DNA of 34,222 bases. Origin: an uncultured Candidatus Saccharibacteria bacterium (lineage in GTDB: Bacteria > Patescibacteriota > Saccharimonadia > Saccharimonadales > SZUA-47). The notes beneath the pieces are model-generated. The model made no database searches. It was not told the DNA's origin and saw only the letters and a program-made list of their open reading frames with translations. Position 1 is the first letter of the stretch; each line of letters opens with the position of its first letter. This document shows positions 31,454 through 33,628 of this stretch, piece after piece. The DNA is taken from positions 1 through 34,222 of the forward strand of contig CAYVHE010000003.1 in NCBI GenBank assembly GCA_964451085.1, given 5' to 3'. The position numbers and the translations under genes were made by a program.

Positions 31454-31536
31454 AACATTATAACATAATACTCGGATTTAGCAATATCCCACTGCATTCC
31501 TTGTATTACTACTAAGTTTGCTAGATTAGTATATAG

Positions 31537-31571
31537 AAAAAGTCCGAGCACATATATATCCTGCTCGGACT
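31537..31571 (-). terminator. Intrinsic terminator after rplL
   Basis: 10-bp stem AGTCCGAGCA/TGCTCGGACT followed by a U-tract on the minus strand. Confidence 0.85.
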
Positions 31572-31599
31572 ATAAAGATAGATTATATCTTTTTTAGAA

Positions 31600-31983
31600 T
31601 TAGGCTAGTTCTACTGTTGCGCCTGCTTCTTCTAGCTTCTTTTTTGCGCTCTCGGCGTCTTCTTTTGAAGCTTTTTCTAAGACAGGCTTTGGAGCTCCGT
31701 CAATTATAGCTTTAGATTCACCTAGACCTAAGCCTGTGATTTCTTTTACAGCTTTGATTGCTGCTACTTTTTGTGATCCTGGGTCTTTCAAAATAACATC
31801 AAACTCACTCTTCTCGTCAGCTGCACCTGCTCCTGCATCTCCTGCTGGGCCGGCTACTGCAACTGCTGCTGCAGCTGGTTCGATGTTATATTCGTCTTTT
31901 AATATTGACTGTAGTTCATTTACTTCCAAAACTGTTAGTCCTACTAACTCTTTTGCAAATTTCTTTAAGTCTGTTGCTGCCAT
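31600..31983 (-). CDS. rplL: 50S ribosomal protein L7/L12
   Basis: LTVLEVNEL, Ala-rich hinge, [34 protein letters not shown]. Confidence 0.98.
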
Positions 31984-31995
31984 TGTATTTTCTTA

Positions 31996-32148
31996 CGCTT
32001 CGCTATTCAAGACAAACCTACGGTACTTTTAGCCCAAAAATCTGATTTTCGGGGGCCCCGGTTTTTTCTCGATGTGCCGTGCACGGTCCGCCGGTTGGCG
32101 GAAAATCCGATGCGCGGGCTGCTCTTTTCCATGAGCTACGGGCGAAGC
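31996..32148 (-). ncRNA. Structured cis-element, copy 1, between SD-like AGAAAGG and the rplL AUG
   Basis: Closing stem GCUUCGC/GCGAAGC; internal stems GCUC/GAGC, CCG-C-GCA-U-CGG/CCG-UGC-A-CGG and UCGAGA/UCUUGA; homologous to the rplJ copy. Confidence 0.75.
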
Positions 32149-32244
32149 TTCCTTTCTTGTTGTTAAATAATGTTCTATATCTAGGACTTGATATTCGAGG
32201 GAGCTACTTAAACTACCATTTATCAAGTATCAATTATGCAAGCC

Positions 32245-32766
32245 TTAGCTTGCCTGTGATGCTACTGCGTCTAACAGGCCGTGTAAATTACCTTGCAAAC
32301 CACTCATAACGTTGGAAACAGGTGATTTTAGGGTGTTTATAACAGTTGCTATTAACTCATCTCTACTTGGAAGTTGTGCTAATGCCTTAACATCCTCGGC
32401 AGCCATAAATTTACCATCAGAGCTGTATGCCCCAATAAATTCTAGCTGTGGTTCAGTTTTAGACATCTTATGTACAACTTGAGCTGGTGCGACTTCGTCG
32501 TCACTATTAAACACATACATCAACATACCGTGTAATTCGGCTGTATCACTGTCTTTGTGTGTCTGAGTTGCTTCTAGTGCTTTTTTAACTAAGCGATTTT
32601 TAACTACTTTTATTACAGTGCCATCTTCTTCGGCGTTTCGCCTTAATTCCTGCATTGCCTTAACTGTTGTGCCTTCATATTTAGCGACAACGGTTAATTT
32701 TGAAGTAGAGATTAGTTCGCCTAGTTCCTTAACAAGTTCATTTTTCTTGTCTTTAGTTAGTGCCAT
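32245..32766 (-). CDS. rplJ: 50S ribosomal protein L10
   Basis: MALTKDKK, YEGTTVKAMQELRR, KVVKNRL, LAQLPSRDELIA; upstream of rplL. Confidence 0.97.
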   Translation of the reverse strand: MALTKDKKNELVKELGELISTSKLTVVAKYEGTTVKAMQELRRNAEEDGTVIKVVKNRLVKKALEATQTHKDSDTAELHGMLMYVFNSDDEVAPAQVVHKMSKTEPQLEFIGAYSSDGKFMAAEDVKALAQLPSRDELIATVINTLKSPVSNVMSGLQGNLHGLLDAVASQAS

Positions 32767-32769
32767 TTT

Positions 32770-32879
32770 CCGCTTCGCTACTCAAGACAAAACCTAAGGT
32801 TTTTTCTCGACGTGCCGGGCGCGGAATAAATCCGACGCGCGGACTGCTCTTTTTCCCTTGGGCTTCAGAGCTGTAGCGG
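32770..32879 (-). ncRNA. Structured cis-element, copy 2, between SD-like AGAAAGG and the rplJ AUG
   Basis: Closing stem CGCUAC/GUAGCG (or CCGCU/AGCGG); internal stems GCUCU/AGAGC, CCG-C-GCG-U-CGG/CCG-CGC-C-CGG and UCGAGA..AAAACC/GGUUUU..UCUUGA. Confidence 0.75.
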
Positions 32880-32946
32880 CCTTTCTAATTTAATTATTTA
32901 TTACAATTTCAAATCGACCGTATTGAATTGCTTGTTACCGAGAATC

Positions 32947-32970
32947 AAAAAACGTCCTCTTTCGAAGACG
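32947..32970 (-). terminator. Attenuator terminator of the L10 leader
   Basis: CGUCUUC-GAAA-GAGGACG-UUUUUU between the L10-leader core and rplJ. Confidence 0.8.
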
Positions 32971-33010
32971 CATTAAAATGCTCGCAAACAATAAGATTTC
33001 TCTTAAATTG

Positions 33011-33057
33011 CCTCGGTGACACTATTAAGCAATTTTACTTGCAGTCACTGTCTTCGG
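33011..33057 (-). promoter_or_regulatory. Ribosomal protein L10 leader (autogenous control)
   Basis: CCGAAGACAG-UGAC...UUAA...GUCA-CCGAGG matches the AGACAG...UAA...CCGAGG kink-turn core of L10 leaders; located upstream of rplJL. Confidence 0.85.
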
Positions 33058-33068
33058 TAACAATTCAA

Positions 33069-33098
33069 ATTATAGCATAAAATAAGTCTAAAAATCAA
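33069..33098 (-). promoter_or_regulatory. Sigma70 promoter of rplJL
   Basis: TTGATT, 18 bp, TATAAT with TGn extension, just 5' of the L10 leader. Confidence 0.75.
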
Positions 33099-33112
33099 AG
33101 GCTATTAATTGT

Positions 33113-33628
33113 CTAATCGGTATTATTTGATTCTTGGAGTGCACAACATCCAACAATGCTATATCGGCTATCTCCGGAAATAAAATACAAACTACGTTCT
33201 CCTCCGTATATTTCTAGCGGAGACTCAGTTAGTGGCGGATAAAATTTTGCAGTTATACTATCGTCGATCTTGCAGGCCAAAACTCCAATAACGGGTATAT
33301 GCTCTCCATAAATACCTTGAAAATCTAATATTTCTTCTTGACTCTCGTCGCCCAGCACATAATTAACAGCAAAATCAGTCCATTTTCCTACATCTAATTC
33401 TAACTGATATTCCATCTCGGTTATTACAGGTTTATCCGGATGTATAATAGTAAATCTATTGTTGCCTTCCGTAGCTCTTCTAATACACCCTTCTGGAATC
33501 TCACCCAAGAAACTACTCCAAGAACCATCATACCCAGTGGCTCTCAGAATTTTACTTGGCTCACCGGTTATTTCATATCCTCTTTGTTTGATTACCCTTA
33601 AAGCACCAATTATTTCTCCGCTTGCCAT
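33113..33628 (-). CDS. Hypothetical protein
   Basis: 171 aa; strong AAGGAG SD; no recognised motif. Confidence 0.7.
   Translation of the reverse strand: MASGEIIGALRVIKQRGYEITGEPSKILRATGYDGSWSSFLGEIPEGCIRRATEGNNRFTIIHPDKPVITEMEYQLELDVGKWTDFAVNYVLGDESQEEILDFQGIYGEHIPVIGVLACKIDDSITAKFYPPLTESPLEIYGGERSLYFISGDSRYSIVGCCALQESNNTD

Follow-up and report, generated by a model that had tools for sequence, protein, structure and literature searches.

A lineage-restricted, structure-constrained and probably insertional repeat family at the rplJ and rplL start regions of a Candidatus Saccharibacteria genome

The DNA considered here (the window) comprises the 34,222 nucleotides of contig CAYVHE010000003.1, from the assembly GCA_964451085.1 of an uncultured Candidatus Saccharibacteria bacterium of the order Saccharimonadales; this genome, called G000 below, is an 833-kb, 39% G+C and 98.5%-complete assembly. 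On the reverse strand of the window, two homologous segments lie directly ahead of genes whose products are identified by Pfam as the ribosomal proteins L10 (rplJ) and L7/L12 (rplL). The first copy spans 32879-32770 (110 nt) and stops 4 nt short of the rplJ ATG at 32766, and the second spans 32148-31996 (153 nt) and is separated by 12 nt from the rplL ATG at 31983. A preliminary description of the window had pointed to these segments, and their positions and strand are confirmed. The pairwise alignment of the two copies has a mean column identity of 76%. An 18-mer and a 20-mer common to both are found exactly twice each in the window with up to 3 mismatches tolerated, for chance expectations of 0.04 and 0.00 matches, and none of 100 shuffles gives two.

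The minimum free energy (MFE) folds of both copies converge on the same four-way junction, made of a closing stem P1 and of stems P2, P3 and P4, as had been described. The rplJ copy reaches -46.9 kcal/mol (z -3.46, 0/200 shuffles equally good) and the rplL copy -58.8 kcal/mol (z -2.97, 1/200 shuffles equally good). In both folds, a Shine-Dalgarno (SD)-like motif is single-stranded immediately 5′ of P1. For rplJ this motif is AGAAAGG (32880-32886), about 114 nt ahead of the ATG. It is followed by the P1 5′ arm GCCGCUAC (32873-32880), found both in the MFE fold and by a duplex search and lacking covariation support, and by P2 (32846-32871), in which GCUCU pairs with AGAGC around a small CC-GG hairpin in the MFE fold. 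A purine run R, GGGAAAAAGAG (32847-32857), which is a mirror image of the P4 5′ arm, overlaps the motif GAGCAG (32844-32849). The P3 hairpin (32815-32842) carries the conserved 7-nt loop AUUUAUU, with 8 of its 9 pairs changed on both sides. The P4 hairpin (32782-32810), UCGAGAAAAAACC ... GGUUUUGUCUUGA, contains one G.U pair, noted before and readable in the sequence; 7 of its 11 pairs are changed on both sides within the genome and 10 of 11 in a wide alignment. The tail UAGCGAAGCG (32771-32780), which sequence, duplex search and MFE fold all designate as the P1 3′ arm, is followed by GAAA and by the ATG (32766-32764).

The rplL copy has the same layout. Its SD-like motif AAGAAAGGAA (32149-32158) lies 5′ of the element, about 166 nt ahead of the ATG, and its P1 5′ arm GCUUCGC (32142-32148) is seen in the MFE fold with a duplex energy of -12.9 kcal/mol. 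P2 (GCUC/GAGC), the purine run (GGAAAAGAG) and GAGCAG occupy 32119-32136, as read from the sequence, the MFE fold and the mirror analysis described below. According to the alignment and the MFE fold, P3 (32077-32117) carries an extra tip hairpin UCCGCC-AACC-GGCGGA (32087-32102), which recurs in a partial copy on contig C7 of G000, and P4 (32007-32072) is lengthened by a branched segment of some 40 nt (about 32021-32060), to which extensions in copies of the genomes G015 and G035 are related. The hairpin shape of these large insertions at the P3 and P4 tips, as well as the replacement of a G-C pair of P3 in rplJ by an A-U pair in rplL, had been noted before and can be read directly in the sequence and alignment. 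The tail AUAGCGAAGCG (31996-32006) is again the P1 3′ arm on the grounds of sequence, duplex search and MFE fold; a 12-nt spacer and the ATG (31983-31981) follow.

The repeat is distinct from the L10 leader of the same region, as previously proposed. Indeed, Rfam places this leader (RF00557) at 32937-33075 with 60.1 bits, and the repeat begins 57 nt downstream. L10_leader is the sole Rfam 15 match in the window, nothing being found over either copy at E<=10. When 17 copies of G000 (types A, B and C) were compared with Rfam 15, none reached a gathering score, and the best row was at chance level (17.7 bits for a gathering score of 37, E 0.35). In line with the earlier failure to recognise a known family, literature searches, at the level of listings and abstracts, returned nothing on repeats or structured RNAs of Saccharibacteria.

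The two window copies belong to a large family. Further copies were first located by BLAST and nhmmer in the G000 assembly, and 16 G000 copies were used to build a covariance model, R1, of 80 positions and 20 base pairs. R1 finds 20 matches in G000 at E<1e-4. In a neighbourhood of 41 genomes, which like the other relatives are a sample of the lineage, it matches 35 (G000 counted), with 403 matches in total and 1-26 copies per genome: 23 of 24 genomes in the family of the window (f1) and 11 of 16 in other families of the same order. These counts include two unpublished genomes (G008 and G020), and the claims made here are independent of both. In a sample of the class, 16 of 120 other genomes are matched, 11 from the same order and 5 elsewhere with weak scores; in a sample of the phylum, matches are seen in 4 of 151 genomes including G000, with a single weak or borderline hit beyond the order. 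A loose pattern scan of all reference genomes, unspecific with its 15 specified bases, returned 80 loci of which 21 hold true R1 matches, and the title of each of these 21 reads Saccharibacteria, Saccharimonad*, Patescibacteria, Parcubacteria or unnamed bacterium. The repeat family is thus essentially confined to one order of Saccharimonadia, and the suggestion of an undescribed family, made from two copies, holds with 20 matches in the genome and a presence in 35 of 41 genomes.

The core of the element, of about 80 nt, is ordered as the purine run R, GAGCAG, P3 (9-12 bp with a U-rich 7-nt loop, AUUUAUU or AUUCAUU), a linker GCRCG and P4. The full form reaches 110-155 nt, and the subfamily of the window copies consists of the core plus a 5′ arm, P2 and a 3′ tail, (U)AGCGAAGCG. 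In the alignment of copies within G000, in which GAGCAG is invariant, 95.2% of the cells of P3 and P4 are paired, for 34-51% in slid controls, and 15 of the 20 pairs are changed on both sides, with a covariation score of 0.669 vs 0.241 when shuffled (0/500 as high). The wide alignment of 66 matches from about 50 genomes, whose pairing figures are biased upward since it was fitted to the model, as were the other wide alignments, gives 96.2% of paired cells, 18 of 20 pairs changed on both sides and a score of 0.645 vs 0.179 (0/500 as high). The earlier proposal that the structure is under selection is therefore upheld for P3 and P4, and only in part for the junction as a whole: P1 and P2 show pairing potential without covariation. 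In 17 full-length copies from 5′ untranslated regions (5′ UTRs), 85.9% of P1 and P2 cells pair vs 32-52% when slid, P2 alone reaching 92.3% with 1 of its 5 pairs changed on both sides. The variation of both stems otherwise consists of one-sided C-to-U changes that retain U.G pairs, and the scarcity of compensatory change can be explained by the invariance of the 3′ arm. An alternative hairpin that would replace P2, CUGYA-GCUCU-URCAG, shows by eye G-C/A-U/G.U variation. Two further ideas, a promoter within the element and a Watson-Crick duplex formed by R and the P4 3′ arm, were also judged by eye and dropped as not general. As for the strand on which the structure is maintained, G.U pairs outnumber A.C pairs on the mRNA strand in type A (40 to 15) and type B (10 to 4), and are about as frequent in type C (15 to 13).

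In G000, stand-alone small hairpins with a P3-type loop (CGGAUUUAUUCCG, ACGGAUUUAUUCCGU) are also found at C12:6590-6798, C2:4224-4241 and C7:18286-18360, where they adjoin full or partial copies. The P3 loop motif seems to be an independent module.

The placement of the element relative to genes was analysed for 86 copies from G000, G005, G015 and G035, with genes taken from a simple open reading frame (ORF) caller and not from a gene finder. Two positions dominate: 29 copies lie in sense orientation at most 30 nt 5′ of a start codon, and 32 face an opposite-strand gene, their 3′ end being at most 30 nt away from its stop codon, which usually falls 0-5 nt past the tail or P4. The others comprise 7 copies after a gene of the same strand, 3 antisense copies on the 5′ side of a gene and 15 in other situations. 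It is always with its 3′ end that the element faces a gene boundary. In G000, the sense 5′-UTR copies precede the genes of S10, a Clp ATPase, alanyl-tRNA synthetase, L33, L10 and L12; in relatives they precede those of sigma-70 (RpoD), RNase J, SecY, a T2SS-F/PilC protein, LexA, L21, NusG, NusA, KhpB and RsmH. Genes read from their N-termini as those of EF-Tu and HrcA are preceded by such copies as well.

Two other arrangements can be mentioned. At C28:9734-9846 and C5:24196-24383 of G000, where an antisense copy immediately precedes a gene, the element is read through by a short upstream ORF whose stop overlaps the genuine start codon (ATGA-type overlap), an arrangement that could preserve translational coupling. 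At C52:3155-3343 of G000, two head-to-head copies 30 nt apart are found beside a tRNA gene (anticodon GTT by reading), and an equivalent copy is present in G015 and at locus L096; in G015 and G035 alike, a copy immediately precedes this same tRNA gene.

The sense copies with a tail are arranged in a particular manner around the ribosome-binding site. Among the 14 of them, both window copies included, the element is preceded by an SD-like motif in 11, and in a single one such a motif (a 4-mer) lies between the element and the start codon. For the 15 tail-less sense copies the motif is upstream in 5 and adjoining the start codon in 8, and none of the 32 antisense 3′-end copies has an upstream SD. 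No gap separates the SD, of the GAAAGGA type, from the P1 5′ arm, and in most of 21 copies examined 6-12 nt remain between the P1 3′ end and the ATG (4-5 nt for rplJ and 12 nt for rplL in the window). At empty rplJ sites of relatives, the same SD motif is found 5-8 nt ahead of the start codon, and in their shortest rplJ-rplL spacers (15-29 nt) an AAAGGAG-type SD lies 5-9 nt before the ATG. The element thus occupies precisely the junction of SD and spacer, and P1 would re-establish a normal distance. With an SD upstream and none at the AUG, this looks like a split ribosome-binding site bridged by a structure. The 3′ end of 16S rRNA was not found in the G000 assembly, and a crude genome-wide count of SD spacing, too blunt for the purpose, was not used.

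Unrelated inserts of 50-90 nt also separate the rplJ SD from the ATG in three relatives, the SD lying about 100 nt before the start (L075 in G018, L090 in G009 and L064 in G003); that of G018 forms a clean hairpin, with 9 nt between it and the ATG. The split arrangement at rplJ is therefore not limited to the repeat family.

A comparison with empty-site orthologs shows that the sites are patchily filled. An R1 match precedes rplJ in 6 of 30 genomes, occupies the rplJ-rplL spacer in 3 of 30 (one being weak at 15.5 bits) and follows the lepA stop codon in 5 of 30. On a maximum-likelihood tree of L10, L12 and LepA from 30 genomes, built by a quick IQ-TREE search, the genomes with filled sites do not group together but are scattered. 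A position conserved in the 5′ UTR of orthologs, as for a riboswitch or cis-regulatory leader, was hence not found at rplJ or rplL. At lepA, the nearest sampled relative is empty in all four filled pairs (G000/G001, G010/G013, G007/G019 and G005/G014). The nearest relative is also empty at rplJ for G000/G001 and G010/G013, no rplJ locus having been obtained from G019 and G014; G001, of the same genus as G000 and its sister on the tree, is empty at both rplJ and rplL. In addition, P3 variants recur at different loci of different genomes, and direct duplications of the target, 16-54 nt long, border type B copies at the junction of atpG with the next gene, at the lepA end in five genomes, at the ychF end and elsewhere. 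The public contigs from the source sample (four runs) end at the repeat or hold pieces of other copies, and no empty-site allele was found among them.

The lepA loci deserve a separate description. In the five genomes concerned (C27:6816-6929 of G000, L278; L281, L284, L293 and L307), a second copy of the last 10-17 lepA codons lies beyond the element. In G000, G005, G011 and G033 it still encodes ...DLPAEAFTVLLKRD and a stop, and in G007 it is truncated with an altered end. It has no start codon of its own, and shows 7-11 synonymous differences from the first copy in G000, G011 and G033, a divergence that plain decay does not explain. One idea is that this second end is renewed by repeated recombination with empty-site alleles. 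In G005, the first hairpin of the L10 leader is itself interrupted by a second copy of the element (L067/L238, C3:12091-12170), located 260 nt upstream of the rplJ copy, and the P3 sequences of the two copies are identical.

A further feature of the core is the relationship between R and P4. When reversed, R matches the P4 5′ arm: over 136 copies, 0.516 of the cells at mirror positions 3-10 are triple-compatible (identical purines, or T opposite A), vs 0.392 +/- 0.011 in 1000 shuffles (maximum 0.425; the shuffle test is inflated by the relatedness of subfamilies) and 0.33 in direct order. At mirror position 4, A faces A in 98 copies and G faces G in 27, the 11 others being different. T in R faces A in 16 cells. 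The length of the A-run in R tracks that of P4 over four length classes, and the mirror is kept by many distinct variant pairs. As one strand carries a purine run together with both its mirror image and its pyrimidine complement, the element has the sequence make-up of an intrastrand triplex motif. Since duplication cannot create mirror repeats, these data suggest that R is a third strand in the groove of P4 and under selection as such. The predicted triples would be G.G-C, A.A-U and U.A-U on the mRNA strand, and U.A-U and C+.G-C on the complementary strand.

Altogether, these observations lead us to favour, with a probability a little below 60%, an insertional and structure-constrained repeat family restricted to Saccharimonadia, whose tailed subfamily fits, and may even be adapted to, the gap between SD and AUG by means of P1. 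The preliminary description had left a choice between a cis-acting RNA and a mini mobile element, and the evidence favours the mini mobile or insertional branch because of the patchy filling of orthologous sites, the target duplications of some copies and the location of many outside 5′ UTRs; the 5′-UTR subfamily may also serve the host. We propose that the family owes its spread, present or past, to insertion into intergenic spacers, very short in these sub-megabase genomes. The tailed subfamily sits in sense between the SD on one side and the spacer and start codon on the other. The element would then be transcribed within the 5′ UTR and fold into a compact four-way junction, whose closing stem P1 would return the upstream SD to about 5-12 nt from the AUG, so that the split site would still work, as in genes 38 and 25 of phage T4. 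Insertions would apparently be tolerated since P1 reunites SD and start codon.

Several points weigh against this reading. No mobilising enzyme accompanies the element: a Y1 transposase (Y1_Tnp) is encoded in 16 of 41 genomes, but G000 lacks it and 3 of the 6 element-less genomes have it, and R1 gives no hit at E<=10 on 6 Y1_Tnp loci, with no element within 1.5 kb. TnpB (1/41 genomes) and reverse transcriptases (RVT, 7/41) show no association with the element, and DDE transposases and integrases were not part of this search. The 5′-UTR subfamily has no clear terminal inverted repeats and no target duplication, none being visible at the rplJ or rplL copies, and no compensatory change is seen in P1 among the 17 full-length copies. 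The orientation is strict, with 29 sense vs 3 antisense copies at start codons and 32 antisense vs 7 sense copies at stop codons, and the genes downstream of 5′-UTR copies are core expression genes. Some positions recur across families of the order, such as the lepA end or the site upstream of a tRNA gene in G015 and G035. Finally, GAGCAG, the P3 loop and GCRCG are constant across the order while the stems turn over, and unpaired motifs that stay constant as stems vary are the pattern of a functional RNA.

A rival explanation is a dedicated host cis-acting RNA, such as a translational operator, a riboswitch or a 5′ stabiliser against RNase J (which these genomes encode), with copies that would form a regulon instead of resulting from selfish spread. 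Folding of the junction, perhaps with a protein, a metabolite or Mg2+, would close P1 and assemble the split site. The sense orientation, the fixed placement between SD and AUG and the retention of the upstream SD in 11 of 14 tailed copies all fit such a role, as do the nature of the downstream genes (nearly all for transcription, translation or chaperones), the invariant junction motifs and P3 loop beside covarying stems, the G.U excess of type A on the mRNA strand and the recurrence of some positions across families. However, 29 of the 86 classified copies lie just 5′ of a start and 32 are antisense at a stop codon, and most relatives, the sister G001 among them, have empty rplJ, rplL and lepA sites. 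Moreover, the unrelated inserts at the same rplJ position in three genomes suggest that this position tolerates any compact insert, as opposed to housing a specific sensor. We consider this explanation possible, with a clear lead over the other alternatives and well short of an even chance.

An unlikely alternative is that the structure is selected in DNA, the two hairpins and an intrastrand triplex serving recombination, replication, DNA uptake or repair, or merely marking an instability-prone repeat, with an incidental RNA fold. The mirror of R and the P4 5′ arm (0.516 vs 0.392), the presence of copies in both orientations relative to genes and the lack of strand bias in type C are consistent with it. 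The long target duplications of variable length would fit template switching at a structure-induced stall, and a precedent exists in intergenic intrastrand triplex repeats linked to genome instability (PMC4666352). Yet the sense-strand G.U bias of types A and B argues for RNA, and the sense orientation and SD/AUG geometry of the tailed subfamily make sense at the RNA level only.

The triple helix could also be incorporated into the insertional reading in a stronger form, which we regard as a speculative and improbable variant: the family would be a self-spreading clamp of translation initiation, in which the junction, locked by a purine-motif triple helix of R with P4, must fold before P1 can assemble the split site, and this folding may depend on a protein, a metabolite or Mg2+.

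A tRNA-derived or tRNA-like signal for RNase P or Z that would punctuate mRNAs is very improbable: the cloverleaf topology, the resemblance of UAGCUC...GAGCAG to a tRNA D-arm (our own reading), the 7-nt P3 loop with U in second place and the 5-nt linker at the place of the variable loop speak for it, but ARAGORN finds no tRNA or tRNA-like gene in 31500-33300, P3 and P4 have stems of 9-12 bp and not 5, the T-loop motif is absent, the 5′ half is missing from many copies and cleavage at P1 would strip the mRNA of its upstream SD, contrary to the retention of this motif. The insertional reading and its rivals are not mutually exclusive.

Structures that rejoin a distant SD and its start codon have been described. 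RNA structure reduces the SD-AUG spacing from 22 to 5 nt in T4 gene 38 and from 27 to 11 nt in gene 25 (PMC3014915), and a hairpin interrupts the ribosome-binding site of E. coli thrS (PMC3936740). As in these cases, the SD-AUG gap is too long here and an intervening structure would restore the distance, the SD directly preceding P1. The T4 and thrS structures differ in that they are single short hairpins of single genes, tested by mutation, whereas the present case is a four-way junction of 110-155 nt, predicted from sequence, in a repeat family that precedes many core genes in many genomes.

MITEs (miniature transposable elements with inverted repeats) and REP/RAYT elements (repetitive extragenic palindromes and their associated transposases) are small, structured and non-autonomous elements that reach many copies and leave filled and empty sites. 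The present family resembles MITEs by its many short copies (20 in G000) and its filled and empty orthologous sites, but terminal inverted repeats amount at most to the 7-nt P1 arms of one subfamily, and the duplications are variable (16-54 nt) and found mainly in type B. It differs from REP/RAYT elements by the lack of a co-occurring or flanking Y1 (RAYT-type) transposase.

The E. coli intrastrand triplex motif TMECO, according to the report that describes it, is a 37-nt sequence with potential for a purine-motif triplex, tied to variable loci and genome instability, for which no rule of orientation or distance and no link to a gene class is given (PMC4666352). Like TMECO and intergenic repeat families as described there, the element is short, multi-copy, strictly intergenic and without a linked transposase. 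It shares no sequence similarity with the TMECO sequence given, and is distinguished from it by two covarying hairpins, a conserved loop, orientation rules and a start-codon subfamily. The ENE and MALAT1-type RNA triple-helix stability elements (PMC7583470, PMC4836648) also have a third strand that mirrors a helix strand. On the complement of the present element, the run would be U/C-rich and could form U.A-U and C+.G-C triples; the predicted third strand of the element differs in being purine-rich on the mRNA strand and in the 5′ UTR rather than at the 3′ end.

The L10 leader shares the 5′ region of rplJ with the repeat, which is separate from it and missing from the rplJ leaders of most relatives. 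Upstream of the L10 leader of the window, a 171-aa ORF (33113-33628, reverse strand) has no Pfam match at E<=1e-5, and neither rplK nor rplA was called immediately ahead of the leader. In the rplJ-rplL spacer, at 32160-32240 on the reverse strand and upstream of the rplL copy, lies a second conserved AT-rich, hairpin-like stretch (GCUUGCAUAAUUGAUACUUGAUA ... UAUCAAGU). It recurs in the rplJ-rplL spacers of relatives, including G004, G007 and G024 (L073, L068 and L066), and is outside the repeat family.

Sub-megabase genomes of Saccharibacteria have almost no spare DNA, and yet they hold up to 26 copies of a folded element of about 100 nt, many of which occupy the most sensitive place of a gene, between SD and start codon, in genes for ribosomal proteins, EF-Tu, NusA/G, sigma factor and SecY. 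R1 provides the definition of a candidate new RNA family with several hundred members. On the practical side, the repeat breaks assemblies, and it could mislead the annotation of start codons and SD motifs. The mirror covariation of R and P4 would constitute a rare comparative signal of a triple helix in a bacterial element. If the junction did act as a clamp locked by this triple helix, ribosomal proteins, EF-Tu, NusA/G, sigma-70 and SecY would be under one structural switch in ultra-small bacteria, and the antisense copies at stop codons would cap mRNA 3′ ends through the complementary U/C-rich triple helix. If the bridging by P1 is true, the family would represent by far the largest and most widespread natural split ribosome-binding site, and would offer a direct test of the size of the structure that a bacterial 30S subunit can span.

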